Assembly: GCA_903843285.1 (NCBI GenBank)
Contig: CAIMPC010000010.1
Span: 968 to 64,967, forward strand
DNA: 64,000 nt
Source of the DNA: Candidatus Omnitrophota bacterium
GTDB lineage: Bacteria; Omnitrophota; Gorgyraeia; 2-01-FULL-45-10
Direction of reading: 5' to 3'
The notes under the pieces were generated by a model. It was given only the letters and a program-made list of their open reading frames with translations. It was not told the origin of the DNA and ran no database searches. A program made the position numbers and the translations under genes. Below, in pieces: positions 19,689-41,715 of the stretch; position 1 is the first letter of the stretch; every line of letters starts with the position of its first letter.

Positions 19689-20852
19689 ATGTCTAAAATT
19701 AGAGTTGCGATAATCGGTGTCGGCAATTGCGCCTCATCGCTTGTGCAGGGCGTTGAATATTATAAGAATGCAAAGGACGGTGATTTCATTCCGGGATTGA
19801 TGCATGCTAACCTGGGTGGATATCGCATAAGTGATATTGAATTTTCTGCCGCCTTTGACATAGATAAGAATAAAGTGGGTAAGGACCTGAGCGAGGCCAT
19901 ATACACCAAACCAAACAATACCAAGGTGTTTGCGAAGGTGCCTTTTCTCGGCGTGAAGGTCCATCGTGGGATGACGCATGACAGCCTCGGAAAATATCTA
20001 TCGAAGGTGATCACCAAGGCTTCCGGCAAGACTGACGATGTAGCCGGGATATTGAAGAAGACTAAGACGGATGTAGTTATTAACTATCTTCCGGTCGGAT
20101 CGGAAGAAGCTACTAAGTGGTATGTCGAGCAGATTCTGAATGCCGGATGCGCGTTTGTTAATTGTATTCCCGTTTTCATTGCCCGCGAAGAATATTGGCA
20201 AAAACGTTTTAAGGATAGAGGCCTGCCTATAATAGGCGATGATATTAAATCTCAGGTTGGAGCTACCATACTTCATAGAGTCCTGACGAACTTGTTTCTG
20301 GATAGAGGGATGCCGGTAGTCCATACCTATCAGCTAAACACCGGAGGAAACACAGACTTTCTTAATATGAAGGAAGAAGAGCGATTGGTCTCGAAAAAGA
20401 TATCTAAGACAAACGCCGTGGTCTCCCAGATACAAAATAGGGGCCTCAGCATCGACAAGGAAAACGTGCATATCGGCCCTAGCGACTACGTTCCATGGCA
20501 GAAGGATAATAAGATCTGTTTCCTGCGCATAGAGAGCAAGCATTTCGGAGATGTGCCAATGAACCTGGAATGCCGGCTATCGGTAGAGGACTCGCCTAAC
20601 TCGGCCGGCGTGGTGGTGGATGCTATAAGGTTGATTAAGATAGCCCTCGATAACGGCATCTCGGGAGTCCTCCTGGGGCCGAGCGCATATCTTAAAAAAT
20701 CTCCCCCGGTACAATATGACGATAACGTCGCCCAGAAGATGGTGGAAGATTTTATCGCAACCTACGGATGGAAAAAGGGATTGGGAAATAAGAAGGCGCG
20801 TTCATGGAAATTTAATTCTAAGAACAAAAAGCGCTCTAAGAATCGATCTTAA
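19689..20852 (+). CDS. ino1: myo-inositol-1-phosphate synthase (MIPS, archaeal/bacterial short type)
   Basis: N-terminal NAD-binding [17 protein letters not shown] and conserved MIPS blocks ([28 protein letters not shown]). Lys-rich C-terminal tail. GGGG RBS. TAGTATAAT -10-like box at ~19631. Confidence 0.8.
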
Positions 20853-20853
20853 G

Positions 20854-21435
20854 ATGGCCGATCCGTTAGGTAAAACTATCCGTTTCATGGCACGATATCC
20901 GGGACGTCTCCTGGCAAAATCTAAGATATCTCCAAATCAAATAACGGTTTTCGGTTTGTTAATAAACTGTGCCGTCGCTTATTTTATAGCTTCGGGGCGT
21001 ATTAATTATTTAGCCTCCGGTATGCTCATATGGGCGGCCGGTTTCTTTGATGCGCTGGACGGCAGTGTGGCTCGGATAAACGGGCAGGTTACAGTTTTTG
21101 GCGACTTTCTGGATTCGGTCCTGGATAGATATTCGGACTCGGTCATATATTTAGGCATAATGGTATATTTCTTAAGAGCGGGAAGATCGGATTGTGTAAT
21201 ATTGGCCGTTATCGCGACCATCGGGTCGTTGGCTGTAAGTTACGTCAGGGCTAAGGCAGAGAGCCTGGGCCGGAAGTGCGAAGTGGGACTACTGCCGCGC
21301 ACCGCGCGCATAGTTATACTGGGGCTATCATTCTGCGTATCCCAGCCATTTTGGGGTCTTTTGATAATCGCAGTGCTCTCAAACCTGACGGTTCTGCAGA
21401 GAATCATCTATGTACGAAAAAACATCTCAGAATAA
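20854..21435 (+). CDS. CDP-alcohol phosphatidyltransferase (phosphatidylinositol-phosphate / archaetidylinositol-phosphate synthase-like)
   Basis: The CDP-OH transferase signature DG(x)2AR(x)8G(x)3D(x)3D is present as DALDGSVARINGQVTVFGDFLDSVLDRYSD. Start taken at MADPLG, 1 nt after the MIPS stop; the ORF-track start at 20716 overlaps MIPS. Confidence 0.75.
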   Translation: MADPLGKTIRFMARYPGRLLAKSKISPNQITVFGLLINCAVAYFIASGRINYLASGMLIWAAGFFDALDGSVARINGQVTVFGDFLDSVLDRYSDSVIYLGIMVYFLRAGRSDCVILAVIATIGSLAVSYVRAKAESLGRKCEVGLLPRTARIVILGLSFCVSQPFWGLLIIAVLSNLTVLQRIIYVRKNISE

Positions 21436-21441
21436 ACGACT

Positions 21442-22020
21442 ATGAAACTGATATTCTCCTGTCTTTGGTATCTTCTCCCCGCCGCGCTGGGGAATCACAA
21501 TGCCTCATGCGGTAACCGCCTTTGGATTCCGGGAATATTTAAACGCGCATTAGCTAAGATGGCCGTGCCGATCGATGGCGGCAATAAGTGGCGTGGCAGA
21601 GAGATATTAGGGAAGAATAAGACGTGGAGAGGGCTTTTGGTCGGCAGTATAACCGGAGTTCTGGTCGCTCTCGCTCAGGCGCTCTTATATTTCAATTTTG
21701 ATTTCTTCAGGCAGAATACATTCATCGATTATGGAAAAATAAACTTTGCGGTATTCGGATTTCTGATGGGCGGCGGCGCCCTGGTCGGCGATGTGGTGAA
21801 GAGCCTTATAAAGCGGATGCTCGATAAGCCGTCCGGTAAACCGTGGTTCCCGTGGGACCAGCTCGACTGGATAATGGGCGCTATGATCCTAAGTTCATTG
21901 GTCTACATTCCATCGGCCAAATCGGCCGTGGTCACAGCGATATTATATGTTGGAGTTCACCTTTGTTCCGACAGAGCAGTGGTTAAGATGGGCATCAAGA
22001 CCAGGAAGGAAGTTAATTAA
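21442..22020 (+). CDS. small membrane CTP-transferase-family protein (CDP-archaeol synthase CarS-like / CdsA-like)
   Basis: 192 aa, polytopic, with GKNKTWRG resembling the K(T/S)WEG box of CTP_transf_1/CarS and a C-terminal GDVVKSLIKR segment. Confidence 0.5.
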   Translation: MKLIFSCLWYLLPAALGNHNASCGNRLWIPGIFKRALAKMAVPIDGGNKWRGREILGKNKTWRGLLVGSITGVLVALAQALLYFNFDFFRQNTFIDYGKINFAVFGFLMGGGALVGDVVKSLIKRMLDKPSGKPWFPWDQLDWIMGAMILSSLVYIPSAKSAVVTAILYVGVHLCSDRAVVKMGIKTRKEVN

Positions 22021-22025
22021 GAGAG

Positions 22026-22757
22026 ATGTTTGGACTCCTCCACAGCGTGGTATTCTGGATATTAGCCTTAGTCTATAGCGTCATCATAGGTATGTACTCA
22101 AACGTCGCGGGACTATTTATTAAAGATGCCGGTAAGAAGGAAGCGTTTTACCGCGCCAACGCGAAATTATGGGGGCGCCTTCTGATGAATGCATCGCTTA
22201 TAAAAGTGAATATAGATGGGCTTGAAAATATCCCGCCCGATACAAACGTAATATATACACCTAATCACCAGAGTTACATCGACATATTTATTCTGCTTAA
22301 GTACCTGCCGGGCACCTATAAATTTGTAATAATGAGAAAATTATTTAAGGTCCCTGTGATCGGTAGTCATATAGCGCGCTCAGGATATATATCTTTGGAC
22401 CGGAAAGACAGAAAGAGATCGGTTAAGACGATTCATGCCATTATAGATGATCTTGCCGCCGGTGAGTCGTTCGTAATATTTCCTGAGGGGAAGTTGACGC
22501 CCGATGGTGAGATAGGGCAGTTTAGCCGGGGGGCATCTATAATTATTCAGCGCAGTAGAAAGCCCGTGGTTCCGATAGCGATCGATGGAACATTCGAGGC
22601 CATGCCTAAGGGGGCGTGGCGGATTAAACGAACGGCGGTTAAGGTAAAGATCGGTAGGCCTATCATCTTTGATGAACATTTCGGGGATATGGACAAGGAT
22701 GGTTCTTACAAGCTCGGCCAGCGGCTTCGTGAAATAGTCGTCGATCTCAAAGGGTAG
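22026..22757 (+). CDS. lysophospholipid acyltransferase (PlsC family)
   Basis: HX4D motif NHQSYIDIF and FPEGKLT motif. N-terminal TM segment. Confidence 0.8.
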   Translation: MFGLLHSVVFWILALVYSVIIGMYSNVAGLFIKDAGKKEAFYRANAKLWGRLLMNASLIKVNIDGLENIPPDTNVIYTPNHQSYIDIFILLKYLPGTYKFVIMRKLFKVPVIGSHIARSGYISLDRKDRKRSVKTIHAIIDDLAAGESFVIFPEGKLTPDGEIGQFSRGASIIIQRSRKPVVPIAIDGTFEAMPKGAWRIKRTAVKVKIGRPIIFDEHFGDMDKDGSYKLGQRLREIVVDLKG

Positions 22758-22772
22758 GGATAAAACAGTACC

Positions 22773-23504
22773 ATGTGGAATAGAACAGCCAGGATAATAC
22801 ATTCTACGATATGGTGGGCAAATTGGATATTGATATTGCTATTGGGCCTGATATTTGATTCCGTCATCTGGCCCGGCAATAGAAAGATGTACAGGAAGAG
22901 CGAATATTTCTGGGCCTGGACGCTCATGAAGATAGGCGGCATAAAATTAAAGATAACCGGAGGGCATAATTTACCTGAGAATGAGACGGTTGTCTACATG
23001 GCAAATCACCAAAGCGATCTGGACTGGCCGATTATATTTATGGCGGTTCCGGGATATTACCTGTTTTTGGCTAAGAAGGAGTTATTCGATGTTCCGGTCT
23101 TCGGAACATACATGAAGCTTCAGAATTACATTCCGATTGAGAGGACAAGCCTCAGGAGATCGCTGAGGACTTACGATAAGGTGGCAGATCTTATTAAGAA
23201 GGGCAATTCGATCGTTATCTATCCGGAGGGCACACGTTCCCGGGACAGGGATCTGCAGAAATTTAAATCTTTCAGCTTCTCATTCCTTCAGGAGGCAAGA
23301 GTCAGGGTCGTCCCGATAGCTATTGATGGCAGTATAAATATTCAAAAGAAGGGAAGCGGGCTTATAAGTCCGGGAGAGGTGAGCGTAAATATTTTACCCC
23401 CCATAAGTTTCGATGATATATATGATCTGGAGGCTAAGGATTTCTGCCGGAAGGCATCGGATAGAGTAAGGGAGTCATTGCTTAAAATTTTAAAGAAAAT
23501 ATAG
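22773..23504 (+). CDS. lysophospholipid acyltransferase (PlsC family), second copy
   Basis: NHQSDLDWPII (HX4D) and YPEGTRS. Confidence 0.8.
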   Translation: MWNRTARIIHSTIWWANWILILLLGLIFDSVIWPGNRKMYRKSEYFWAWTLMKIGGIKLKITGGHNLPENETVVYMANHQSDLDWPIIFMAVPGYYLFLAKKELFDVPVFGTYMKLQNYIPIERTSLRRSLRTYDKVADLIKKGNSIVIYPEGTRSRDRDLQKFKSFSFSFLQEARVRVVPIAIDGSINIQKKGSGLISPGEVSVNILPPISFDDIYDLEAKDFCRKASDRVRESLLKILKKI

Positions 23505-23511
23505 GAGAATC

Positions 23512-23922
23512 GTGATAGGAAGATTATTTAAAGAGACCTCCGACACGGTGCATGTGCAGGTCTTCCGTTATATTTTAGCAGGTACTGCGGCATACGCACT
23601 TGACTACAGCGCGCTGGTCGTCTTTACGGAAATAATAGGGTTATATTATCTGACGTCCGCAGCATTGGCATTTCTGTTGGGTGCCATTGCAAGTTACATT
23701 ATGAATGTAACGTGGGTATTTAATGATAGGGCATTTAAGAACAGGCGACTGGAGTTCACCATATTTATATCAATAAGCATAGCGGGGCTATTTTTAAACC
23801 ACTACTGCATCAAATTTTTCACAGAGAGCGTTAATATGCACTACCTGACATCGAAACTCATATCTTCCGTCTTAGTCTCTGCGGTCAATTTTTCCGCGAG
23901 AAAATATATACTGTTCAGGTAA
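23512..23922 (+). CDS. GtrA-family membrane protein (polyisoprenoid-linked sugar translocase-like)
   Basis: 136 aa, four predicted TM helices. N-terminal FRYILAGTAAYALDYSALVVF is typical of GtrA-like proteins. Confidence 0.65.
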   Translation: MIGRLFKETSDTVHVQVFRYILAGTAAYALDYSALVVFTEIIGLYYLTSAALAFLLGAIASYIMNVTWVFNDRAFKNRRLEFTIFISISIAGLFLNHYCIKFFTESVNMHYLTSKLISSVLVSAVNFSARKYILFR

Positions 23923-23941
23923 TGGCTCGTCGCATTTTAGT

Positions 23942-23970
23942 TTGACATACCATAATCGTTCATATAGAAT
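23942..23970 (+). promoter_or_regulatory. sigma70-like promoter TTGACA-17-TAGAAT
   Basis: TTGACA at 23942-23947, a 17-nt spacer, then TAGAAT at 23965-23970. Lies about 50 nt upstream of the 24020 operon, whose first gene has a GGAGG RBS. Confidence 0.45.
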
Positions 23971-24019
23971 AATTTTACTATAATAGTTACATCAAAATAA
24001 AGCGTGCGGAGGTAGTATT

Positions 24020-24400
24020 ATGTCGGGATTTGGTGCTGGAGAACTCATATGGCTGGTAGTGGCGGTCCTTTTGGCGTTGGGAGTGGTTATAACCTGGATA
24101 ATGAAGGCCGAATCGAGCCGTAATGTGTTTCGGGCAGAAGTTAATAGACTTAAATCGCAACTTGATGAGCTTGAACGCGAAAAGATGGCCATGGTGGAAG
24201 AGGTTGAGGCATTTAAAGACTTCATGGATTCGTCTTCGGTTACACCAGGCCAGTCAGGAGCTTCCTCCGGAAATGCGATAGTGGCCAAGATGGCCGAGAA
24301 GGTCGGTGAGCTCGGGAAAGAGAACGAGAGACTTAAGAAGGATCTCAATGAAGCCAGAAGCTCCCTGGAAGAAGTTTATAAAGCGATGTGCAGTAAATAA
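24020..24400 (+). CDS. small TM + coiled-coil protein (126 aa)
   Basis: TM helix LIWLVVAVLLALGVVITWIM, then heptad-rich sequence. First gene of the ParA-associated operon. Confidence 0.5.
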   Translation: MSGFGAGELIWLVVAVLLALGVVITWIMKAESSRNVFRAEVNRLKSQLDELEREKMAMVEEVEAFKDFMDSSSVTPGQSGASSGNAIVAKMAEKVGELGKENERLKKDLNEARSSLEEVYKAMCSK

Positions 24401-24403
24401 TGT

Positions 24404-26623
24404 TTGAGTACTAAGGATAATCGTATGAACGAAATATTCGATAAGATGAAAAAGACGGATGTGGTAGGCGCCTCTGGTACGGTAAAAGAGGGCGTGTGTA
24501 TGGATATAAGCGATATGAAGAGACAGATCCTCGAGAGGCTGAGGGAGAAGAAGGCCTTGGCCTCTGTATCAACCGAAACCCTTAGACCATCAGTGAATAA
24601 AGAGGATCTGCTAAAGGCCGTTAATAAAGGCGAGACATCTACGGTCGTAGTGGAAAAGATCGTGGAAAAAATTGTTGTAAAGCAGGACGAGGAGGTTGTG
24701 AGACAGCGGGATTCGCTTAAGACAGAGCTTGCCGATAAGGAGGCTGTCCTTCAGGATATACGGAAAAAATTTGCCGAGGCTAAACAGACATTGTCGGTCC
24801 AGGAAGGTGTTTTAAGAGCCAGGGATAGCGCCTCTTCCGATGCCCCCAGGATATTGCGCGAACTCGATGCGGCAAGGAAGAAAGCCTCCGATCTTCAGAC
24901 ACGGGCCGAAACTCTCCAGGTTGAGCATAAGAAGATGTCCACCGAACGAGATGAGGCTCTTAAGCAGTTCGAAAAGATGCGCAGAGATTTCGAATCAAAA
25001 GATAGGGCCACACAGGATCTCGATAGACGGCTTAAGGAGGAGCGGGACAGATCCTCTTCGATGAATGAACAGCTTAAGTCCAGGGATAAGGGGATAGCCG
25101 AGGCACAGAAGATAGCCAGAGAGCTCGATGTGGCTAAGAAGGCCACAGAGACAGAGCATGCCAAATACGAGAATCTCACTATTGAACACAGGAAGGCATT
25201 ATCTGACAGAGACGAATCGGCAAAACTTCTTAAAATACTGAGAGCGGAAGATGATAAGAGGGAGAGGTTGATCAGCGACCTGCAGAAGAAGGTTGCCAGG
25301 ACGAGCGAGCTTGAGGCCGCCCTGCGCATAAGGGATACCAGAGCAAGTGAGATCGATAAATTATCTAAAGAGCTGAGCTCTTCCAGGAATTTATGCGAGG
25401 AATACCGCTTGAAGTTCGAGGATGTGCAGGCTGAAATTAAGCGGCTCATCGCAATGCAGGCCGAAGCGGCGGGCCATCACGGCAAGCTTAAAGATGAATT
25501 TGCCGCCAGGGAAGCGTCTTTACGACAGGAGCAGAAAAAGCTTACGATAGAATTGGACGAAGCGATTAAGGATCGCGATAGGGTTACATCTAATGTAGAG
25601 TCGCTCAGATCTAAGCTGTATACTGTGACCAAAGAGACTAAAGAGCAATCTTCCAGGATCACGACCCTGGAAGAGTCATTGAGAGGAAAAGATAAGAAGA
25701 TTCAGGAGCTCGAAAAGCTGAACACCGATATAGCGGCATCGAAGACAGCCGTAGAATCAAAGTTGATTGCAGTCGGGGGCGAGCATAAAGCCCTCAGTGA
25801 AAATCATGCGAGGCTTAACGATGAATTGGCCGGCGCCAGAACTAAGATCGCAGAGATTGATAAATCTCGTAAAGAGATAGAGGTATCCCTCGGCGAAAAA
25901 GATCTTCAGTTGCAAGCGAGCCTGCGTGACAAGAAGGAGCTCGAAGCTAAACTGGGACAGATACGTCTGGAGCTGGAGGCGAAGGCCGGCCGAATGTCCC
26001 AGGCCGATAAGTTATATAAGGAGCTGGAGGCCGCGGCGCAGGACATGACTTCCAAGCTACAGGTAAGTCAGCGGGATGCCAAGGAGCTCGAGGCTTCTAA
26101 GGGTGATCTCACATTACAGCTATCGAATGTTCATCGGGACAAGAGAGACCTGGAGATGCGGATCTCCGAATTAGGAATGGAGATAGAGGCGAAGTCCATA
26201 CGGCTGGAGGATGCGGATAAGCTTTATAAAGAGACAGAGACGCTATTGAGCGACCTTGCGTCTAAACTTCAGGTAAGCCAGCGCAGGACGGAAGCCTTAG
26301 AAAAAGAGGTCTCCGGCCTTACAGAGTCGCTTAAGAGCACAACGCATAAACTGAAAGAGACCGAAGACCTCTCGAAGAGCGAGATTGAAAGGTTAAGTTC
26401 TGAGCTTGCCCTGGCAAAGGGCACCGTGAAGGATAAAGAAAGAAAAGAGCTTGAACTGAGAAACACGGTCGAGCATCTCGAGACCGAGATACAGGTAAGG
26501 GACGAAAAGATCGAAGGAGATATCAGGTATACTGACAAGGTTGTGAAGGAGGTCGGGGAGCTTCGTAAAAAAATGGCATCCCTGGATCGCCATAGCGACA
26601 GGACTAAGAGTGCAGGCGCTTAA
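24404..26623 (+). CDS. long coiled-coil protein (739 aa) with internal ~70-aa sequence repeats
   Basis: Almost entirely E/K/R/L/A heptad-like sequence. Repeated blocks DKLYKELEAAAQDMTSKLQVSQRDAKELEA and DKLYKETETLLSDLASKLQVSQRRTEALE. Its stop overlaps the ParA start. Confidence 0.7.
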   Translation: MSTKDNRMNEIFDKMKKTDVVGASGTVKEGVCMDISDMKRQILERLREKKALASVSTETLRPSVNKEDLLKAVNKGETSTVVVEKIVEKIVVKQDEEVVRQRDSLKTELADKEAVLQDIRKKFAEAKQTLSVQEGVLRARDSASSDAPRILRELDAARKKASDLQTRAETLQVEHKKMSTERDEALKQFEKMRRDFESKDRATQDLDRRLKEERDRSSSMNEQLKSRDKGIAEAQKIARELDVAKKATETEHAKYENLTIEHRKALSDRDESAKLLKILRAEDDKRERLISDLQKKVARTSELEAALRIRDTRASEIDKLSKELSSSRNLCEEYRLKFEDVQAEIKRLIAMQAEAAGHHGKLKDEFAAREASLRQEQKKLTIELDEAIKDRDRVTSNVESLRSKLYTVTKETKEQSSRITTLEESLRGKDKKIQELEKLNTDIAASKTAVESKLIAVGGEHKALSENHARLNDELAGARTKIAEIDKSRKEIEVSLGEKDLQLQASLRDKKELEAKLGQIRLELEAKAGRMSQADKLYKELEAAAQDMTSKLQVSQRDAKELEASKGDLTLQLSNVHRDKRDLEMRISELGMEIEAKSIRLEDADKLYKETETLLSDLASKLQVSQRRTEALEKEVSGLTESLKSTTHKLKETEDLSKSEIERLSSELALAKGTVKDKERKELELRNTVEHLETEIQVRDEKIEGDIRYTDKVVKEVGELRKKMASLDRHSDRTKSAGA

Positions 26624-27446
26624 TGATAGAGTAGAGAAGATGTTCGGATGGCTTAGAACCCAGGGCGCCACCGCCATAAAAGGGAAGACCGCCAGAAAAC
26701 AGCTCTTTCTGAACTATAAGGGCGGAACCGGAAAGACCTCTATATCTGCCGCATATGGATACTATCTGGCAATGACGGGTAAGCGGGTGCTTATGATAGA
26801 TCTGGATGCGCAGGCGCATCTGACCACATGCTTTAATCACGAAACCGTCAGACATGAAAAGAGCCTGTATAGCGTACTGATACGTTCCGCGCGCTTGTCG
26901 GAGGTCATCGTCGGAACGTCTCTTCCCACATTAAAACTGGCCCCATCGTCGATATCTCTCTCAGCCCTCGAGATGCCTTTATTTAAAATGCCATACAGAG
27001 AATTCAGATTGCGCCGCGCCCTGCGAGAGGTCGAGGGAGATTTCGATTTCATAATAATAGATTCGGCTCCAAATATAGGCCTTGTAAGCCTTAATGCGAT
27101 ACTCGCTTCAGACGAGATATTAGTGCCGCTACTGGCGGATTTCCTGTCATTCCACGGGCTTAAGATATTGATGGAGACCATATCGTCGGTCCAATCAGAT
27201 TTCAATTTCTATTTCAAGAAGATCAATATTTTCCTGAACAAGTTTAATCCGGAATACTCTATATGTAGAGAGTGCCTCGAAGCCGTCCGTAAACACTACC
27301 CAAGCTATGCGCTTAAGACCGTAATTAAAGAGTCGCACGAAATAATGGATGCAACCAGCGTGGGTAAATCGATATTTGAGTTCAGCCCTGATTCAAAGGC
27401 CGCGCAGGATATTAAAGACCTGGTGAAGGAAGTCAACGGTATTTGA
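26610..27446 (+). CDS. ParA/MinD-family P-loop ATPase (orphan ParA-like)
   Basis: Deviant Walker A NYKGGTGKTS. Also has LMIDLDAQAHLT, FIIIDSAPNIG and a ParA-like C-terminal helix. Start may be the GTG at 26610 or the ATG at 26640. Confidence 0.8.
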   Translation: MQALNDRVEKMFGWLRTQGATAIKGKTARKQLFLNYKGGTGKTSISAAYGYYLAMTGKRVLMIDLDAQAHLTTCFNHETVRHEKSLYSVLIRSARLSEVIVGTSLPTLKLAPSSISLSALEMPLFKMPYREFRLRRALREVEGDFDFIIIDSAPNIGLVSLNAILASDEILVPLLADFLSFHGLKILMETISSVQSDFNFYFKKINIFLNKFNPEYSICRECLEAVRKHYPSYALKTVIKESHEIMDATSVGKSIFEFSPDSKAAQDIKDLVKEVNGI

Positions 27447-27485
27447 TAAATAAGAAGGCTCATCCCGAGCTTAAGGAGGATTTAC

Positions 27486-27938
27486 ATGAAGACCAAGTTC
27501 GACGAAAATGTAGCGCATGATATACCTGTTACAAAAAATTCATCCGAACCCGAGCTTCCGTGGAAATTATCCGAATCTGAGCTTACAAAGCTAGAGGCCG
27601 CCGAGGAGGGTTTAAAAGATGCGGTATCCGCGCCTCCGCTTCACGTCAGAGCAATATTTGTGGTACTGCTTGTAGCCACTATATTCGTTGTTATATTGAA
27701 TAACATGGTTAATATGGCTATAGACAATAATCGTATGCAGATCGATATATCTAAAAAAGAGAAGCAGGTATCTACGGTTCAGACCCAACTGGCTACCGTT
27801 AAGAATGAAAAAGAGGCCCTGACTGATAATGCCTCGAAGATGGAGAAGCGCATAAATGACCTGAGCGCCCAGAAAGAGCTCTACAGCGCTGTCATTGAGA
27901 CGCTGACGAAGAAGACGGACGACGCCCCGGGTAGTTAA
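27486..27938 (+). CDS. small TM + coiled-coil protein (150 aa)
   Basis: Single TM helix AIFVVLLVATIFVVIL followed by a coiled-coil (FtsB/FtsL-like architecture). AGGAGG RBS. Confidence 0.5.
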   Translation: MKTKFDENVAHDIPVTKNSSEPELPWKLSESELTKLEAAEEGLKDAVSAPPLHVRAIFVVLLVATIFVVILNNMVNMAIDNNRMQIDISKKEKQVSTVQTQLATVKNEKEALTDNASKMEKRINDLSAQKELYSAVIETLTKKTDDAPGS

Positions 27939-27944
27939 AGAGAG

Positions 27945-30557
27945 ATGAAGAAATCGATATTTATGCCATTCATTAGACATGCGGTGCTTGTAGTAGCGTT
28001 AGTTTTATTGCCCTCGGCGGTATCCTGCCAAAACCTTTCATGGGAAGACCTGAGCAAGCAGTCGTGGGAATTAAACAAACAGGGTAACTTCTCCGGAGCC
28101 ATCAGCACGGCCAAAAAAGCGCTCGAAGCGGCTACGGAACAATTTGGCCCAAAACATGCAAATGTGGTGATATCCCTTAACTCCATAGCGGCCATGTACA
28201 AAACCCATGAGAAGTATAAGGAATCGGAAGCCTACTATAAGAAGGCGCTTGCTATGCGGACTCTCTCAATAAGCTGTCCCGTTATAAAACAGGATTACCT
28301 GGACATATACACGGCGATGAAAAACCTCTATTCCGTATACAAGATTCAAAATAAATTACCTCAGGCCGGAAAAGTATTGAGACGCGCGTTAACTATTGAA
28401 GAAAAAGTGACGGGGAAAGATTCTCCGGAAGTAGAGAGAGACATCAGAGACCTGATCTCCATATATGAGGCCCAGGACAAACCTCAGCGGACGGAGCCAT
28501 TATATAAGAGGATTATAGAGATCGAAGAGAAGCGCCATGGGCCAAACAGCGCTGAGGTGGCCAATACCATGAATAGCCTCGCCGCCGCATATCGGTCGAT
28601 GAAACGATATGATGAGGCCGAGCCGCTATTAAAGAAGATAATAACCCTGGCCGAAAGCACGCATGGCGCCCAGGATGGCACTTTACCGACATTTCTGAAT
28701 AATCTGGGTACCGTACACTTCTACCGGGGGAAATATCAGGAGGCCGAGGAGCTATTTAAGAGAGCGCTGGCTATGGATGAAAAGATGTTCGGGGTAAATA
28801 GTCCCGAGATTGTCACCGATCTTAATAATCTCGCGACACTGTATTCTTATGAAAAGAGATATCAGGAGGCCGAGGAGCGCTACCATAGGGTGCTGGATAT
28901 AAATGAAAAGTCATTCGGACCCGAAAGCGTTAATTCTATAAAGTATATGAATAATCTTGCGGCTATATTTGCATATCAGCGAAAGTATAATGATGCAGAG
29001 AGCCTTTACAACAGAGTGATAGCTATAAGCGAGAAAGCGTATGGGCCGGATCATCCGGCTATGGCATCCGCTCTTAATAATCTGGCGTTTCTATACCAAA
29101 AACAGGCCGATTATGCAAGAGCCGAACAGCTCTATTTACGCTCCGCGCTGATATGCGAGAAGGATCTGGATAAAAATTATTCTATAATGAAGACCGCTAT
29201 AAATAACCTGGTAGCCATATACAGGATTCAGGACAGGCAGGCCGAAACGGCACAGGCGCTAAAAAGATTGATAGATATGAGCGATAACGCAAAAAAAAAA
29301 GAAAACCCTGACTCGATCCCCGCACTAAAAGATCTTATAACGATATATACCACCCAGAATAATTTTAAGATGATGGAGGAAGTGTACCTCAGGCTGATCC
29401 TGGTGGAGGAGAATGTATTCGGCACCGATAGCGCGGAGCTGGCCGATACTATGAATAAGTTGGCCGGCATTTATAGATCCCAGCGAAAGTTATCGCAGGC
29501 CGAGCCGCTCTTAAAAAGAGTGGTTCAGATAGCGGAGAGCGTAGACGGCCTGTACAGCACAAGCCTTTCCAGCTACCTCAATAATTTAGGGGTCCTATAT
29601 TTTTATCAGGGAAAGTTTACAGAGGCCGAGCCGCTCCTAAGAAAAGCGCTTACCATAGACGAGAAAGCGCTGGGAAAGAATGATCCGGGGATAGTAGAAG
29701 ATCTGAATAATCTTGCCGTAGTCTATTCGTTCCTTAAGAAGTATAAGGAAGCAGAGATCCTTTATGGTCGTGTTATAGGGATATCTTCGAAGGTATCCGG
29801 CGAGGATAGCTTAGCGGCGATATCGGCGACCAACAAGCTGGCGTACGTCTACGAGTCGGAAGAAAAATATGAAGAGGCGGCAAAGCTTTACACCAAGGTT
29901 ATAGAGATATGCGCTAAGGATGAGGCCAAGAACTATCCTGAGCTCAGGATTTCGCTAAACAGCCTCGCTAATATTTACAGCGGTATGGGTAAGCATGAAG
30001 AGGCTGAGCCATACCTTAAGAGGGCGCTCGCTCTCGAGGAGAAGATTGCCGGTAAAGGCAGTATGGATTATGCCGAGACGCTGAACTATTTGGCCAGGAT
30101 CTACAGGGCCCAGGGGCGATATTCGGAGGCGGAGGCGGCATTAAAGCAAGTTATAGAAACCGGGGAAAAGATGATCGGTTCAGATAACCCGGTGATGAGG
30201 CCATATTTGGATAATCTGGCTACAGTATATTTTTATCAGAAAAGATATGAAGAAGCCCAGCCGCTTATGGAAAAGATATTGAGTATAGATGAAAAGATTG
30301 GTGGGAAGGAGAATCCTGAGCTGGTAAAAGATTTGAATAATCTGGCTACGTTATATTCAAAGTTAAATAGACTCGAGGATGCAGAGTTGTTATATTCCCG
30401 AGCCGCATACCTATGCCAAAACTTTAGCAGTGATCCTAAGGAACTCGCAAATATTCTCGAAAATATGGCAAACATGTACGAAATGGTAAATAATTCTGAA
30501 AGAGCCGAAAATTTACGTTTGCAAGCAGAATCAATTCGTAAACCAGCCAAGCCTTGA
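27945..30557 (+). CDS. tetratricopeptide-repeat protein (TPR_12 / kinesin-light-chain-type repeats), secreted or lipoprotein
   Basis: Signal peptide with possible lipobox (LLPSAVSC). About 17 tandem ~42-aa units of form NNLAxLYxxxGxYxEAEPLxKRALxIxEKxxG. Confidence 0.85.
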   Translation: MKKSIFMPFIRHAVLVVALVLLPSAVSCQNLSWEDLSKQSWELNKQGNFSGAISTAKKALEAATEQFGPKHANVVISLNSIAAMYKTHEKYKESEAYYKKALAMRTLSISCPVIKQDYLDIYTAMKNLYSVYKIQNKLPQAGKVLRRALTIEEKVTGKDSPEVERDIRDLISIYEAQDKPQRTEPLYKRIIEIEEKRHGPNSAEVANTMNSLAAAYRSMKRYDEAEPLLKKIITLAESTHGAQDGTLPTFLNNLGTVHFYRGKYQEAEELFKRALAMDEKMFGVNSPEIVTDLNNLATLYSYEKRYQEAEERYHRVLDINEKSFGPESVNSIKYMNNLAAIFAYQRKYNDAESLYNRVIAISEKAYGPDHPAMASALNNLAFLYQKQADYARAEQLYLRSALICEKDLDKNYSIMKTAINNLVAIYRIQDRQAETAQALKRLIDMSDNAKKKENPDSIPALKDLITIYTTQNNFKMMEEVYLRLILVEENVFGTDSAELADTMNKLAGIYRSQRKLSQAEPLLKRVVQIAESVDGLYSTSLSSYLNNLGVLYFYQGKFTEAEPLLRKALTIDEKALGKNDPGIVEDLNNLAVVYSFLKKYKEAEILYGRVIGISSKVSGEDSLAAISATNKLAYVYESEEKYEEAAKLYTKVIEICAKDEAKNYPELRISLNSLANIYSGMGKHEEAEPYLKRALALEEKIAGKGSMDYAETLNYLARIYRAQGRYSEAEAALKQVIETGEKMIGSDNPVMRPYLDNLATVYFYQKRYEEAQPLMEKILSIDEKIGGKENPELVKDLNNLATLYSKLNRLEDAELLYSRAAYLCQNFSSDPKELANILENMANMYEMVNNSERAENLRLQAESIRKPAKP

Positions 30558-30593
30558 CAATAGTATAATCATTAGGTATACTCGGTAACAAAA

Positions 30594-30606
30594 GTTAGTT
30601 ACTAAC
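30594..30606 (+). promoter_or_regulatory. perfect palindrome GTTAGT-T-ACTAAC, candidate operator
   Basis: Lies about 20-40 nt upstream of the ROK-like regulator gene. The half-site AAGTTAGT recurs twice around the promoter of the giant gene (41602-41609 and 41665-41672). Confidence 0.35.
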
Positions 30607-30627
30607 GTTACGGCATTATTTCTTTAT

Positions 30628-31770
30628 ATGTATGATGGGGTTAAGAAAATGAAAATAGAGAGAAATTTTATATTTACCTGCCACACATTAAATGATAAAG
30701 AGAAGAGAAGTCTTTTGATTTATGATTTAATAAGGAAAAGAGGAATTATATCGAGATCGGAAATAACGAAAGCCACCGGGATAAACGCCGTATCAGTCTC
30801 TAACTATATAAATAATTTTATAGAAAAGAAGATGGTGCTGGAGAAGGGATTTGATATTTCGACGGGTGGTAGAAAACCTGAGCTTATTGAGCTTAATACT
30901 GAGGCGAACCATGTAATAGGTATCGATATCGGTAAAAGAGAAATAAGAGGAGCGATCGCGGATCTGGGGATTAATATAAAGGTAAGGAAACAGATCCATA
31001 GGCCTGCCGACAGAGAAGTTTCATCCGAGGTAGTTCGTTTAGTGGAGGATATGATAGCGGCATCGAAGATCAATATCACCGATATAAAGGCTGTCGGGCT
31101 GGGGCTATCCGATGAGAAATTCATTAATGTAGTGGCGGCTATAAAAAAGAAGACCGGAATCGATGCGTTTTACGGCCCGTCCGCCGCATGCGCAGCGTTT
31201 GCCGAGAGACGTATTAATCAAAGCGCGGATGTGGATAACCTTCTCTACATATATTCTGATGTCGGCGAGGGCGTCATGATGCACCAGGATATATATCTGA
31301 GCGCTTCGGAAGACGAGAGCCTCATGGAAGGCAAGCTCAGATACTTAAGGCCGTGGGACGACTATCTTAGTATTGCTGAGAGCGCCAGACGGGAAGTGGC
31401 CAGAGGCGTAGGGACAAAGATGGTGAGCCTCGCTAAGGGCAATGTTAATAATATCACCAGAGAAGATGTCATGGCGTGCGCCAGGGCAGACGACGAAGTT
31501 GCTCTTAATATAGTGCTTAGCGCCGGCATTAACCTTGGGCTCAGGATAGCATACCTGGTGAATCTTTTTGCTCCGGAAATAGTAGTTATAGGCGGCGGGG
31601 CGCAGGACGCCGGTGATATAATATTGATGCCGCTTAAAAAGACGGTGGACAGACTTGCGTTCCGCGACCATCTTAAGGGATTAAAGATAATTACCAGCAC
31701 GCTGGGAGAGGACGCAGTCGATATCGGCGCGGCTTCTCTGGCCATAAGAGAAGTATTTATTAAAGCATAG
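30628..31770 (+). CDS. ROK-like transcriptional regulator (N-terminal winged HTH + ASKHA sugar-kinase fold; Zn-Cys motif absent)
   Basis: HTH region LIRKRGIISRSEITKATGINAVSVSNYIN. Kinase-fold glycine loop VIGIDIGKREIRGAI. No CxCGxxGC motif, so probably a non-kinase regulator. Confidence 0.55.
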   Translation: MYDGVKKMKIERNFIFTCHTLNDKEKRSLLIYDLIRKRGIISRSEITKATGINAVSVSNYINNFIEKKMVLEKGFDISTGGRKPELIELNTEANHVIGIDIGKREIRGAIADLGINIKVRKQIHRPADREVSSEVVRLVEDMIAASKINITDIKAVGLGLSDEKFINVVAAIKKKTGIDAFYGPSAACAAFAERRINQSADVDNLLYIYSDVGEGVMMHQDIYLSASEDESLMEGKLRYLRPWDDYLSIAESARREVARGVGTKMVSLAKGNVNNITREDVMACARADDEVALNIVLSAGINLGLRIAYLVNLFAPEIVVIGGGAQDAGDIILMPLKKTVDRLAFRDHLKGLKIITSTLGEDAVDIGAASLAIREVFIKA

Positions 31771-31781
31771 GGGGGAGTGTC

Positions 31782-32135
31782 ATGTCAGAAGAGAAGATGT
31801 GTAAGTTATGTGGAAAACCGTTTCTTGCAAACAAGTACAGGCCAAACCAATCGATCTGCTCTTCTTTAGAATGTCAGTATCAGAGACAGCTCGAGAATAT
31901 GAAGCAGTGGCGTGATCGCAACCCTCAATATTTCAAATATAAAGCGAGTCAGGACTCATCATGGAAAGAGACATGCAGACAGCGTTCTCTCGAGTGGCGC
32001 AGGAGTCACATGGAATATCTGAAGCTATATAGAGAGGAACATAGAGAACGCCATAGAAATTACATGAGGGATTATATGAGACAGTATAGAAAGACGAGTA
32101 GTGCGAGTGAGACGGCGGAGCCGGGAGTAATATAA
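31782..32135 (+). CDS. hypothetical zinc-ribbon protein (117 aa), Arg/Tyr-rich C-terminus
   Basis: CKLCGKP...CSSLEC (4 Cys) N-terminal ribbon. GGGGGAG RBS. Confidence 0.45.
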   Translation: MSEEKMCKLCGKPFLANKYRPNQSICSSLECQYQRQLENMKQWRDRNPQYFKYKASQDSSWKETCRQRSLEWRRSHMEYLKLYREEHRERHRNYMRDYMRQYRKTSSASETAEPGVI

Positions 32136-32143
32136 GTCTACGT

Positions 32144-33994
32144 ATGCGTTCACTTAAGCCTATAGGCAAGATTTTTTTAGTGGCGGTATTTATCTTTGGT
32201 TTCACGGCAGGCGGCATAGCTATAGCCGAAGCGCTTGGGACCAAGGATGAGCTGAATTTTGAATTTAATCCGGCTGAAGGTTACGGCACTGCCCCGGAGA
32301 AGCCTACCACCCAACCAGAGATACCCGCAAAAGAGACTAAGAGTACGACGGCTCGACAGATAAAGACGTACCCAATAAAGGTTGAAGATAAGACCGCCTT
32401 GCCGGCTAATAAGCCCGAAGAGAAGAAAGCCCAGCCGCCGAAATTATTGGAAGTGAAGAAAGAAGTGATTAAGCTTCCTGAGTCCGCCGGGGCCGCGCGG
32501 CCTTCCGGTAAGGATGTCAGTGTGCTTAACAGATGGTTTGGCCTCGAGACCGGCGTGGAGAGCATGAAGATGCGGCGCAAGGCAGGGACCGAAACAATAT
32601 CAGGTAGCGGCCCGGGAGGTATCTTTAGTCTGGATGACTGCATAAATATTGCCATAAGAAACAACATACCTTTACAGATAGCTGAGAAGAATGTGAAGCT
32701 TGCCCAGATGAGGATTATGGAGGCCAGGCGCAATATGCTTCCATCAGCTACGGTGGTCTGGGAGCCCTATACAGGAGTTATGAACGAGCAGAGATATTAT
32801 GGCAGAAAACAATATATCGAGGGCAAACAGCCTGTGTTTCACGGAGGTGAATTATTCTTCACTCTGAAACAGGCTGAGGTTAATCTCGAGATCTCGAGAA
32901 ATGAATCAAATAAGACTAAGAATGAGCTAATCCTTCAGGTTAAGAAGGCATACTATTCGCTGGCGAAATCTGAGGATAACCTGAAATTGCAGTCGGAACT
33001 CTCAGTAGAGGTTGAACATATATTCAATATGGTAAATGAGCAGTATGACGCAAAGATCGCTTCTAAGTTGGAGCTTTTAAATGTGAGCTCTCAGGCCAGC
33101 CAGACAAAGTATCAGCTCGCCTCAGCTGATGGCGATGTGGGCGTCGCCGAGTTAATATTGAAACAGGCTATGAATATAGACCCTGAGGCAACGATTAAGG
33201 TAAGGCCTAAACTCGAATTTAACAGAGTGGAAGTAAAATACGCAGATGCGCTAAAGGCCGCGTTTGCGAACAGGCCAGAGGTTATCATAAATACTCTGAT
33301 GATAGATTATTATATCTACGGAAAGAAGGTGGCTTTATCTAAGGGTTTGCCAAAAGTGGATCTCATGGGAAGCTGGGGTCTGGCCAAAGAAACATATGTG
33401 CTGGAGGATAACGCGTTTAGCAATACTGGCGCGACCAACGCCCCGGGGTTTAATACACCGACCATAGCTGATGAAAAAGTGAAGGCACAATGGTATGCGG
33501 GGCTTAAAGCGTCCGTACCGGCCTGGGGATCTACAGGTGAATACTCATTCACCAGAGAACAGTGGGTGCCCACTGTGGCAACTTTCCAGGGCACCGAGGC
33601 AAAGACGAACTCGTTTAAATTTAAAATCCTGGATAATCTGGCCATGTATTCCGAAAAGCAGTCCGCCGAAATCGATTTCGATAGGGCGCGGCAGGAGCTT
33701 AATAAGATAAGGCAGGACGTTAATCTCGAAGTCAAAGAGGGATGTTTTAATTATCAGAAGGCGCTGATTCAGCTCGACACAGCGGTGTATAAAGTGAAAT
33801 ATCAGGAAAAGGATCTCGAATTTACTAAGATGAAACGGTCGCTCGACGAAGCGCAGGATTCGAGCGTAATCGAAAGCATGATAAAGCTTTCCCAGGAGAG
33901 GTTTGGATATGTGCAGGCCCTGACGGACTGCCACACGGCCGTCGCCAGTATAAATAAAGCTATCGGAGTAAAAGATTATATTAAGGACGAATAG
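32144..33994 (+). CDS. outer membrane efflux protein (TolC/OEP family) with long Pro/Lys-rich N-terminal extension
   Basis: Signal peptide, ~130-aa low-complexity P/K/E/T linker, then two OEP repeats. First gene of the OEP-MFP-RND-RND operon. Confidence 0.75.
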   Translation: MRSLKPIGKIFLVAVFIFGFTAGGIAIAEALGTKDELNFEFNPAEGYGTAPEKPTTQPEIPAKETKSTTARQIKTYPIKVEDKTALPANKPEEKKAQPPKLLEVKKEVIKLPESAGAARPSGKDVSVLNRWFGLETGVESMKMRRKAGTETISGSGPGGIFSLDDCINIAIRNNIPLQIAEKNVKLAQMRIMEARRNMLPSATVVWEPYTGVMNEQRYYGRKQYIEGKQPVFHGGELFFTLKQAEVNLEISRNESNKTKNELILQVKKAYYSLAKSEDNLKLQSELSVEVEHIFNMVNEQYDAKIASKLELLNVSSQASQTKYQLASADGDVGVAELILKQAMNIDPEATIKVRPKLEFNRVEVKYADALKAAFANRPEVIINTLMIDYYIYGKKVALSKGLPKVDLMGSWGLAKETYVLEDNAFSNTGATNAPGFNTPTIADEKVKAQWYAGLKASVPAWGSTGEYSFTREQWVPTVATFQGTEAKTNSFKFKILDNLAMYSEKQSAEIDFDRARQELNKIRQDVNLEVKEGCFNYQKALIQLDTAVYKVKYQEKDLEFTKMKRSLDEAQDSSVIESMIKLSQERFGYVQALTDCHTAVASINKAIGVKDYIKDE

Positions 33995-34025
33995 GTCTCG
34001 ACGATAAAAAAGGGGCATTGAATTT

Positions 34026-35225: not shown

Positions 35226-35266
35226 CAGCAGACAGCATATCGTGATAGGAAGCGAATGATTAATTT

Positions 35267-38200: not shown

Positions 38201-38419
38201 GTAAGATTAAGGCCGATACTCATGACGGCCCTTACCACTATATTAGGCCTTGCGCCAATGGCATTTCTCGGCGGCGAGGGGGCGGAACTGCGCGCGCCTA
38301 TGGCGATCACCGTAATGGGCGGACTTCTCGTGGCTACATTTCTCACGCTGGTCGTTATTCCGGCCCTATATCTGATGTTCGTCGAGACCGCAGAGAAGAT
38401 TTTCAAACGAAAAAAATAA
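35267..38419 (+). CDS. RND efflux permease (AcrB/HAE1-like), 1050 aa
   Basis: 12-TM AcrB architecture with two large periplasmic loops. N-terminus RPVTVMMVVAAVLIFG matches the RND consensus. Confidence 0.9.
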   Translation: MSLPQLSVNRPVTVMMVVAAVLIFGTVSLGLLPQELFPQIVFPQLTVVTPYENAAPEEIETLITKPIEEAIGTVSGIKKISSISKEGLSMVIAEFGWGQNINFAALGMREKIDLVKERLPREAEEPIVLPFNPFDKPILILSVTSSKDRQPVIFRELVRKMIKDSLEKVDGVASANISGGMEREIQVEVDQDKLRARDIPILDISKAISNSNINYPAGTIKESFYEYLIRTLGEFSAVRDIEETVINTGADQEGAQGGGQGSAIARNNNLIYLKDVAKVTDGLKERTSYSRYNGKDNISILVQKQAMGNTVRIIDRVKQRIRELKDDLPKDINIAIVYDQSEFIKSSINGVWEAAWQGAVLVFLVLYFFLRNIWSALIVTLTIPISVITTFSLMFFFGISINMMSLGGLAFGVGHLVDYAIVVVENIFRHTQMGEDQKKAAVIGTDEVFIAVTGSVLTNIVVFLPLIFIVGIFGQIIKDFALTLTFSFLAALIASMTFIPLLASRGKSLSIGESEGSAAKSGGKGFSLDKVAKFYENLLEKYIHQKGKYLAYTLLLFLVSVSVFIFLDKELMPKVDQGQFTIKIDMPAGTRLDVTNSISEKIEGFLLSIPDVSSLSVTVGSTKESTTKSVIERLSANQAEIIITLKKKRKIKSSEIVQIVKGKISSMNLGGARTEYVLQENVLSTGGTVQAPVTIEVKGNDLAALERLTRDIQKGLEKVKGVYGIKNNLAEPSPEAKVFIDKDKSSIYNLSVTDIAQTSLIGLKGYISTKFKEKGEEFDVRVRLRKQDRDSFDKLGRLELQSPGGMKVQLSSVANFGKGKGPSEIKRLNQERVVLVYANIYNRPLKDIVSDVTGMLKSLKTPKDYSVKLTGETEDMKSSFESMRNAIIAAFLLVYMIMAALFESLWQPFIIMFTIPLAVIGVGWSLLITRTSVNAYVLMGFVMLCGIVVNNAIVLIDCINLFLSKGMKLEEAVVKASNVRLRPILMTALTTILGLAPMAFLGGEGAELRAPMAITVMGGLLVATFLTLVVIPALYLMFVETAEKIFKRKK

Positions 38420-38420
38420 G

Positions 38421-41647: not shown

Positions 41648-41715
41648 CCACCTAATACAATAGAAAGTTAGTAGCGATATTAACCATGTTCGCAAAATAT
41701 TCCCAAGGAGAAAAC

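Follow-up and report, generated by a model that had tools for sequence, protein, structure and literature searches.

A 64,000-nucleotide stretch of a Candidatus Omnitrophota genome (hereafter the window) carries five co-directional genes, which we designate S, C, Z, X, and T and which probably encode a ParA/MinD-type positioning module built on a core homologous to PomZ and PomX. In Myxococcus xanthus, PomXYZ positions the division site by means of the ATPase PomZ and two activating proteins, PomX and PomY; the complex moves on the nucleoid and, at midcell, both places the FtsZ ring and stimulates it. Z is the ATPase of the Omnitrophota set, and X, encoded directly downstream, opens with a PomX-like peptide followed by a transmembrane (TM) helix and a coiled coil. 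S is a second small TM-coiled-coil protein, C a long coiled-coil protein, and T an exported TPR protein. Together, these features suggest an envelope-spanning version of the PomZ/PomX positioning system. In current annotation, all five proteins are “hypothetical” or generic “ParA family”.

Z belongs to the ParA/MinD ATPases (Pfam AAA_31, E = 2.7e-45), and residues K37, G38, K42, T43, D64, and D66 are conserved in 18/18 Omnitrophota sequences; its catalytic motifs are intact. The AlphaFold2 (AF2) model of Z (predicted TM-score, pTM, 0.79) superimposes best on Soj/ParA structures with a TM-score of 0.82, followed by McdA, BcsQ, and MinD; the closest solved structures are those of Soj/ParA and not of MinD, MipZ, or McdA. 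Moreover, the Omnitrophota alignment contains two unusual invariant motifs, LFLNYKGGTGKTS and LADFLSFHGL. A scan of GTDB genomes for ADFLSFHG and KGGTGKTS, two motifs of the family, returned, among the matches listed, loci of Myxococcaceae, Archangium, Cystobacter, and Anaeromyxobacter with 43–47% identity to Z, as well as loci in metagenome-assembled genomes (MAGs) of Syntrophaceae, Thermodesulfobacteriota, and Bacteriovoracaceae with 47% identity. The Myxococcus locus L026 is the pomY-pomZ-pomX locus itself. Its ATPase has G62, K66, and D90, numbered as in the PomZ literature, the gene upstream encodes a coiled coil, HEAT repeats, and a Pro-rich tail, and the gene downstream opens with MKKAFEQNVSRAKPRLR, the PomX N-terminal peptide containing K13 and R15 (PMC7993993, PMC13170346).

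In a neighbour-joining (NJ) tree of 51 sequences, in which Firmicutes Soj and the other ParA-like proteins returned by the scans serve as outgroups, the Omnitrophota, Myxococcota, and Desulfobacterota-type sequences form one clade separated from Soj and other ParA-likes in 100/100 bootstraps, with Omnitrophota Z as sister to Myxococcota plus Desulfobacterota type in 81/100. Mean identity over the trimmed alignment amounts to 43–45% within this PomZ-like clade versus 28% to the outgroups. Judged by this tree, Z is a PomZ-clade ATPase rather than a Soj-type ParA; the earlier note on this DNA had suggested a ParA phylogeny as a check, and in this NJ tree the window ParA falls with Myxococcus PomZ. 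Among 1.84 billion cluster representatives, Omnitrophota Z forms one 50% cluster at 608 bits, after which come about a dozen clusters at 250–180 bits and then a continuous ParA tail. Named Z homologues are all from Candidatus Omnitrophica/Omnitrophota, and the best 120 clusters are each at least 64% identical to Z, which points to a strongly constrained family; exact copies of the window Z occur on 17 metagenomic contigs. Three Cys residues are conserved in Omnitrophota Z, namely C74 and C219, which are invariant, and C222 (≥90%), the latter two within I-C-x-E-C; C74 is common to PomZ and C219 to the Desulfobacterota type. In the NJ tree, another ParA-like family, encoded at the metagenome loci L110, L115, and L116 (~320 amino acids, with the N-terminal helix-turn-helix (HTH)-like segment ITASDAA.FFGV.LQ.IHKQLK), takes a position between Soj and the PomZ-like clade.

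The fold and the closest solved structures of Z, together with the label “chromosome partitioning protein” that its homologues bear in public sources and the presence of mnmE, often an origin-proximal gene, at 60749–62152, could be read as signs of an ordinary chromosome-partition ParA (Soj) whose ParB/parS lie elsewhere and whose neighbors are unrelated envelope proteins. We consider this very improbable. Z groups with PomZ, it is acidic at the equivalent of Soj R189 in all Omnitrophota sequences, and the protein that adjoins it and carries a peptide of the ATPase-activating (AAP) type is not a ParB; additionally, S, C, X, and T are kept in synteny in eight lineages. Across the 64-kb window, no parB, replication, or plasmid gene is present among the gene calls and no parS-like site is matched at ≤3 mismatches, which agrees with the earlier note in its statement that parB, parS-like sites, and replication genes are absent. 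The reading frame at the end of the window, 3′ of mnmE and folE, was considered as a parA/parB candidate; by eye, and with no search against families, it resembles a protein of LysM/L,D-transpeptidase type. While Z and the ParA of ParABS systems have the same fold, they differ in partner (not ParB), in the exchange of a DNA-binding Arg for Glu, in the absence of ParB/parS from the window, and in sequence (~28% identity over the trimmed alignment).

A further connection to PomXYZ is formed by the N-terminus of X. The window protein starts with MKTKFDENVA..IP.TK and matches the PomX peptide MKKAFEQNVSRAKPRLR, while its orthologues follow MK[TK]KFE.NVA.[ED]IPKT[KR]...EP.LPWK. In 115 representatives of the X family, M1, F5, V9, A10, and P14 are invariant, position 15 is K/R in 88%, and position 17 is K/R in 98%. 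With PomX the family shares M1, K2, F5, [DE]6, N8, V9, and P14 and, in the 88% just given, a basic position 15; PomX K13 has no conserved counterpart, and the window X itself has V15 together with K17. By hhalign, X aligns to PomX over residues 1–18 (P = 8e-4) and to the Desulfobacterota-type PomX-like proteins over residues 1–29 (P = 2e-5). AF2 predicts helices in X at residues 3–9 and 30–47 and a continuous helix at 52–145; the PomX peptide has been modelled as helical at residues 3–8 (PMC13170346). The similarity gains its weight from recurrence in several lineages, at one and the same place in the gene order: the gene right after the ATPase opens with MK..F[DE].[NS]V....P[KR] in Myxococcota, Desulfobacterota-type bacteria, anammox Planctomycetota, and Omnitrophota. 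By these alignments, X appears to carry a PomX-type ATPase-activating peptide at its extreme N-terminus. Wherever X homologues are named, they are “hypothetical proteins” of Omnitrophota.

In the earlier note, the ParA had been paired with the large coiled-coil protein as its partner. This part does not hold, since the PomX-like partner is the 150-residue X and C displays no significant similarity to PomX or PomY. Comparison of C and T with PomY by hhalign gave P = 0.23 to 0.92, and we rejected both as PomY homologues. C and S were likewise rejected as homologues of the PomX coiled coil, as the matches (P = 4e-3 to 5e-4) are confined to coiled-coil regions and are read as non-specific.

The surface of Z on which such a peptide would dock is also retained. 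An AlphaFold 3 (AF3) model, published in 2026, of the PomX N-terminal peptide on the PomZ dimer lists the contacting PomZ residues (PMC13170346). At the contacts F202, F205, E219, V229, A249, Y254, F257, and S274, Omnitrophota Z has identical residues or conservative exchanges (in the window F178, F181, Q195, I205, A225, Y230, Y233, and S250); in Soj, the first seven read Y, L, K, E, E, F, and Q, and S274 is S. In total, 8/13 positions of the peptide pocket are identical or conservative, and Q271, E275, and E256 of PomZ are unconserved. Further, the hydrophobic pocket proposed for PomY helix α5 remains hydrophobic, and D221 is kept. Measured against the published model, Z keeps the PomX-peptide pocket.

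In contrast, the position through which ParA proteins bind DNA is substantially altered. Non-specific DNA binding depends on two Arg residues of Soj, one of which is R189 (evidence summarized in PMC7229837). The equivalent of R189 is Glu/Asp in 18/18 Omnitrophota Z sequences, with a further Glu in the adjoining position, but K/R in 16/16 Myxococcota, 5/5 Desulfobacterota-type, and 6/6 Soj sequences. The net charge of the segment differs, at −2.0 in Omnitrophota versus +1.0 to +1.4 in the others. The equivalent of Soj R218, a position that was not tabulated, is Lys in the sequences displayed. Since the canonical DNA-binding position is charge-reversed, the matrix on which Z acts may not be the nucleoid.

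The literature searched describes PomXYZ for myxobacteria alone, and among these for Cystobacterineae (PMC7993993, PMC13170346); in a full-text literature search, none of the papers listed that name Omnitrophota, Desulfobacterota, or Bdellovibrionota mentions “PomZ”. Judged by gene order and the peptide, the Z–X core is also present in Desulfobacterota-type MAGs, in a Bacteriovoracaceae MAG, and in anammox Planctomycetota. In Myxococcota, the gene after the ATPase starts with MKKAF[DE].NV[SP]R.[KR]PR.R. In MAGs of Syntrophaceae, Thermodesulfobacteriota, “Deltaproteobacteria”, and Bacteriovoracaceae (L011–L013, L017, L019), three-gene sets encode a short HEAT protein, a PomZ-like ATPase extended N-terminally by an HTH-like segment, and a PomX-like protein; in the Desulfobacterota-type MAGs, the gene after the ATPase opens with MKDGFDKSVAEKMPRMQKKRPNRPWNVDP, and the short HEAT protein matches the HEAT region of PomY with an hhalign probability of 91%. 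PomXYZ-like triplets are thus not restricted to Myxococcota.

The closest relatives of Z outside Omnitrophota, at 48–50% identity, are from anammox Planctomycetota, two of them named Candidatus Anammoxibacter. There, the gene after the ATPase opens with MVNRYDEIAEKMPWIKKKDNPRKPWDNP and overlaps the ATPase gene, and no TM helix is visible in the two X proteins. Like Omnitrophota Z, the anammox ATPases are acidic at the equivalent of Soj R189 (RESSDI). Their N-terminus is fused to a long Lys-rich disordered region and a coiled coil, and the Lys-rich part could serve as an alternative means of matrix binding; no comparable basic region was found in Omnitrophota S, C, X, or Z. Kinship of C or S to this fused coiled coil was considered and dropped (P = 0.13 and 0.004, not significant). 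Planctomycetota have been reported to divide without FtsZ (PMC12283558). Taken together, the Desulfobacterota-type and anammox pairs have the Z–X core and its adjacency in common with the Omnitrophota module, and the X peptide P..PW[KND] as well, but their X lacks a TM helix and S, C, and T are missing.

Within Omnitrophota, we compared eight lineages (the window, L005, L007, L010, and L170–L173), in which Z is 65–72% identical to the window protein; most loci listed by the genome and metagenome scans come from outside this phylum. The order S-C-Z-X-T recurs in all eight, so that the synteny check suggested in the earlier note turned out in favor of conservation. C (389–804 amino acids), Z, and X (150–191 amino acids) are kept in 8/8 lineages; S (106–142 amino acids) is present in seven, and the L010 contig ends upstream of the S position. 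T measures 825–937 amino acids in most lineages, 578 in L010 by the open reading frame (ORF) call, and is cut by the contig end in L172. The stop of C and the start of Z abut or overlap in all lineages compared. By its gene order, the recurrence is well beyond chance adjacency. All compared loci belong to one phylum, and ancestry may preserve gene order to some degree; adjacency by descent, with no functional module, is nevertheless scarcely credible, as the order is kept at 65–72% ATPase identity while the upstream flank differs in each lineage, stop and start codons overlap, and the Z–X pair is adjacent in three other phylum-level groups.

Beyond the peptide, X departs from PomX in being a predicted membrane protein. 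A TM helix is found in 8/8 Omnitrophota X proteins (mean Kyte-Doolittle hydropathy 2.7–3.0) versus 0/27 PomX-like proteins of Myxococcota and Desulfobacterota. The conserved PPL[KH].R (PPLKTR in the window) lies just before the helix and the far side is acidic or neutral. By the positive-inside rule, which we used for both S and X, X is predicted to be N-in, which would leave its peptide cytoplasmic and its coiled coil periplasmic. T consists entirely of TPR (13 TPR_12 stretches, also TPR_10), has an N-terminal Sec-type signal peptide in 7/7 orthologues, and lacks a conserved lipobox, its Cys not being kept among the 7 orthologues, in line with the exported TPR protein of the earlier note. As T has a signal peptide and X is predicted N-in, T and the X coiled coil would share the periplasm.

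S has the opposite predicted topology. Its TM helix is flanked by a charge of −1 on the N side and +1 to +4 on the C side (7/7 orthologues), giving a predicted N-out orientation with a cytoplasmic coiled coil, which makes S a plausible membrane anchor for C. The C-terminal motif L..EN.RLK.EL.EA..SLEEVYKAL of S is conserved. Pfam and NCBIfam matches of S and X are limited to sub-threshold coiled-coil families. The earlier note had likened the two small proteins to FtsB/FtsL; the architecture of one TM helix followed by a helix stands for each, whereas the predicted topologies are opposite and the DivIC match of S is sub-threshold (23.1 bits against a gathering cut-off of 28.9). If S and X were divergent FtsB/FtsL/DivIC-type subunits of a lineage-specific divisome sub-complex, with Z in a minor part, one could point to this architecture, to DivIC matches in 5/7 S orthologues (E = 6e-5 to 1e-2), to an FtsL_Actino match at E = 3.5e-6, and to an RlpA-like gene beside the module in four loci. 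Such a complex is nonetheless quite unlikely: all these matches fall below the gathering score or curated threshold and many unrelated coiled-coil families score alike, S is predicted N-out, opposite to FtsB/FtsL, the best-conserved part of X is a cytoplasmic PomX-like peptide that FtsB/FtsL lack, and the standard dcw genes are reported as retained in Omnitrophota (PMC12283558).

The RlpA-like genes are small and encode a DPBB_1 domain (double-psi beta-barrel). They lie 3′ of T in three of the four loci and 5′ of S in one, and the window has no equivalent near its module.

C matches no Pfam or NCBIfam family beyond SMC/Rad50-type coiled-coil noise. The earlier note had described internal repeats of ~70 residues, of which one clear duplication with a 70-residue offset stands (residues 527/597, ADKLYKE...SKLQVSQR...LE; score 89 versus a maximum of 58 in 20 shuffles), but the repetition is limited, a second repeat has an offset of 87 residues (141/228, score 61), and no tandem repeat was found behind them at the DNA level. 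The length range of the orthologues arises via gain and loss of repeat units. Conserved segments are the N-terminal M[DE]IS[ED][MI]K..ILE, the central NVE.LRSKLY..TKE.KE...RI.QLEE, and the C-terminal RD.KIE.D.KY.E.V.KE..ELR.K, the last, encoded directly 5′ of the translationally coupled Z gene, being, by pure inference, a candidate second Z-binding element.

Compared with PomXYZ as a whole, the Omnitrophota module has in common an ATPase at ~43% identity with the signatures LADFLSFHGL and LFLN.KGGTGKTS and the residues of the PomX-peptide pocket, a gene right after the ATPase with MK..F[DE].NV....P[KR] and then a coiled coil, and a chromosomal locus without parB. The differences concern the partner proteins, the DNA-binding site, and the N-terminus of the ATPase. 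PomX is a soluble cytoplasmic filament-former of ~400 amino acids with an Ala/Pro-rich linker, whereas X has 150, is predicted to be a membrane protein, and has a predicted periplasmic coiled coil. The Glu/Asp of Omnitrophota Z at the Soj R189 equivalent occupies the position of K268 in L026 PomZ. S, C, and T are extra, Omnitrophota-specific proteins.

The arrangement also resembles MinD/MinE, in which a deviant Walker A ATPase is activated by a partner via a short N-proximal peptide. The published binding site of the PomX peptide coincides in part with the one that MinE uses on MinD (PMC13170346), and the MinD surface is acidic where ParA proteins bind DNA (PMC7229837), as is that of Omnitrophota Z. 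However, Z is nearer to Soj/ParA in sequence and structure and lacks the conserved C-terminal amphipathic membrane-targeting helix of MinD, its C-termini being variable or absent past ..EVNG; no minC, minE, or other min gene is found in the window. With respect to BcsQ, Z scores 74 bits against the equivalog TIGR03371 (cut-off 157.85) and synthase genes are absent. Gene content and family scores place the module outside the ParABS, MinCDE, BcsQ, and Tad systems.

We propose the following working scheme. ATP-bound Z dimers would bind a matrix, be it the nucleoid via non-canonical residues, an S/C scaffold, or the membrane. The cytoplasmic peptide of X would then dock in the conserved pocket of Z and trigger ATP hydrolysis, and repeated binding and release would, as in PomXYZ, give the complex that contains X its position or pattern. 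Because X is predicted to be an integral membrane protein, the cargo is expected to be an envelope complex, comprising X with periplasmic T as well as S with cytoplasmic C. In this complex, the periplasmic coiled coil of X may contact the exported TPR scaffold T, S may anchor C to the membrane, and C, translationally coupled to Z, may provide either a second partner for Z or the scaffold. The earlier suggestion of a non-canonical, envelope-associated ParA akin to PomXYZ or McdAB is supported by the PomZ clade and the PomX peptide in X, so that for these two proteins analogy can give way to homology; its division-related role is drawn by analogy.

Several observations weigh against a PomZ/PomX-based positioning module. 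On the side of X, the similarity to PomX is short (18–29 residues) with modest pairwise P-values, PomX K13 is not kept in the family, and the window protein has Val15, as do 9/115 representatives, although K17 is kept. On the side of Z, the ~55-residue N-terminal extension of PomZ is missing, being variable or absent in Omnitrophota, where some sequences begin 5 residues before the first strand; the R189 equivalent is acidic in 18/18 sequences, outgroup sampling in the NJ tree is limited to sequences from the scans, and the bit-score distribution lacks a sharp break below about 180 bits. Moreover, the operon encodes no PomY: no protein of it has a Pfam HEAT match, and a gD domain is likewise missing. 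With the charge reversal, the missing PomY, and the missing N-terminal extension, the nucleoid-matrix mechanism is not simply transferable. The topologies are rule-based, contacts among S, C, X, and T are conjectured from gene order, and the entire argument is drawn from sequence.

As to what is being positioned, division-site or septal-envelope organization is our leading guess by analogy to PomXYZ, held tentatively and below even confidence. It fits the occasional RlpA-like neighbor and the FtsZ and standard dcw genes that Omnitrophota are reported to retain (PMC12283558). A serious alternative arises from the block of genes that invariably follows T. It encodes a ROK regulator, a Zn-ribbon protein, a TolC-like outer membrane efflux protein (OEP), a membrane fusion protein (MFP), and resistance-nodulation-division (RND) pumps, and is present 3′ of T in 7/7 lineages with sequence available. 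The module might accordingly supply an accessory ATPase to a secretion or export machine of the envelope (compare BcsQ-BcsC and TadZ-TadD), placing or assembling the adjacent TolC-MFP-RND exporter or another surface structure instead of regulating division. The constancy of this block beside ever-changing upstream flanks, the fused TPR domain of the OEP in L005, the likeness of T to the periplasmic TPR proteins BcsC, PilF, and TadD, and a Z score above the Pfam BcsQ gathering cut-off (45.6 vs 21.3 bits) speak for it. On the other hand, Z is far nearer to PomZ than to BcsQ (TIGR03371 score as above; TM-score 0.69 to BcsQ vs 0.82 to Soj), synthase, secretin, and pilus genes are missing from the operon, and the RND block has a promoter-like site of its own, and we rate an export role as unlikely. 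It would employ the same Z/X mechanism as the positioning module favored here and differ in cargo alone. A functional link between the RND block and the module is possible, and membership of the block in the module is uncertain. The Zn-ribbon protein is basic and Cys-rich (CxxC...C....C).

A wider evolutionary proposal, which we regard as speculative and rather doubtful in its entirety, is that PomZ/PomX is an ancient pair (Myxococcota, Desulfobacterota, anammox Planctomycetota, Omnitrophota) that was rewired in Omnitrophota to a trans-envelope patterning machine. Here, the canonical nucleoid-binding patch of the ATPase would have been lost, and a membrane-bound activator would pass the ATPase cycle of the cytoplasm on to a TPR scaffold in the periplasm, the whole serving as organizer of the division site or of envelope constriction in ultra-small bacteria. 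No ParA/MinD system whose activating protein spans the membrane and couples to the periplasm would have been known before.

For positive, nucleoid-guided placement of the division ring, PomXYZ serves as the textbook example, and it is regarded as specific for myxobacteria. If the homology holds, the ATPase-activator pair would be older and more widespread, with four further lineages, of which two belong to the Planctomycetota-Verrucomicrobiota-Chlamydiota (PVC) superphylum; this would alter the evolutionary picture and provide natural variants for dissecting the activating peptide. The Omnitrophota design, with its membrane-anchored activator, periplasmic partner, and charge-reversed DNA-binding patch, would be unusual and could show how a ParA/MinD cycle couples to the envelope. 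It would also be a concrete, testable candidate for cell organization in the widespread uncultured Omnitrophota.

The layout of the operon is compact (table below). Intergenic gaps are 3 or 24 nucleotides for S-C, 39 for Z-X, and 6 or 24 for X-T, depending on the start used, and two stop codons keep the Z and X genes apart. The five co-directional genes with tight gaps, the promoter at 23942, and the overlap of the coiled-coil gene stop with the ParA start, all described in the earlier note, are found again in the ORF list and the motif counts, with gaps of 3–39 nucleotides and an overlap of 14 nucleotides. Within 23400–32200, only two sites match the promoter consensus at 11/12, at 23942 and 30554, with the five genes between them. 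Promoter-like matches in this interval total 16 versus 14.5 expected, i.e., chance level, which makes the bracketing suggestive. The 30554 site likely marks the start of the next unit and thereby the 3′ boundary of the five-gene operon.

Coordinates of the five genes, their encoded features, and related loci (window positions unless a locus is named).
Feature	Position	Strand	Remarks
Sigma-70-like promoter	23942–23970	+	TTGACA-17-TAGAAT, 5′ of S; consensus match only, 11/12
S gene	24020–24400	+	126 amino acids; first of five co-directional ORFs
S TM segment	24044–24100	+	residues 9–27, then two coiled-coil segments
C gene	24404–26623	+	739 amino acids from TTG; public gene calls: ATG 24425, 732 amino acids
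C repeats	24845–25195 and 26003–26302	+	internal similarity
C C-terminal motif	26498–26572	+	RD.KIE.D.KY.E.V.KE..ELR.K, conserved
Z gene	26610–27446	+	278 amino acids, GTG start; ParA/MinD ATPase
Z deviant Walker A	26718–26738	+	KGGTGKT, invariant
Z acidic segment	27327–27350	+	KESHEIMD, where Soj/PomZ have DNA-binding basic residues
X gene	27486–27938	+	150 amino acids
X N-terminal peptide	27486–27566	+	MKTKFDENVAHDIPVTK...ELPWK, residues 1–27
X TM helix	27654–27710	+	residues 57–75
X coiled coil	27723–27920	+	to about residue 145
T gene	27945–30557	+	870 amino acids; public gene calls: start 27963, 864 amino acids
T signal peptide	27963–28028	+	encoded
Second promoter-like site	30554–30582	+	TTGACA-17-TATACT, 11/12, just 5′ of ROK gene
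Neighboring block	30628–41579	+	ROK regulator, 117-residue Zn-ribbon protein, TolC-like OEP, MFP, 2 × RND
DPBB_1 genes	L005 14316–14747; L006 8442–8816; L173 9771–10199; L172 5454–5870		
Anammox pairs	L174 6001–8318; L175 4875–6877		proteins P0241, P0242, P0244, P0393, P0394
Three-gene sets in MAGs	L011 7560–10343; L012 6095–8574; L013 7565–10196; L017 4341–7160; L019 2402–4852		

The window is otherwise ordinary chromosomal DNA, with genes for BipA, ABC-F proteins, MacB, RND pumps, purH, folC, and mnmE; Rfam and tRNA scans of it gave no match. An anti-phage defence system was considered for the module and rejected, as PADLOC gives weak coiled-coil, TPR, and P-loop matches alone. Directly before the module, an inositol phospholipid-type cluster (19689–23922) encodes inositol-1-phosphate synthase, a CDP-alcohol phosphatidyltransferase, a CarS-like CTP transferase, two PlsC-type acyltransferases, and a GtrA-like protein; in the other lineages, this cluster does not lie beside the module. 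Right after the two RND genes follows an ORF of 1904 codons without Pfam match (41686–47400). Further downstream (52661–56125), a 688-residue protein with C-terminal HEAT repeats precedes an HD/HD-GYP-type (HD_5) protein. The HEAT protein (52661–54727) was rejected as a distant PomY, since it has neither a coiled coil nor a Pro-rich region and adjoins the HD-GYP gene. All plausible genes of the window lie on the + strand and the GC skew is positive in each 2-kb bin; this co-oriented stretch is unusually long, and mnmE and folE lie near its 3′ end.

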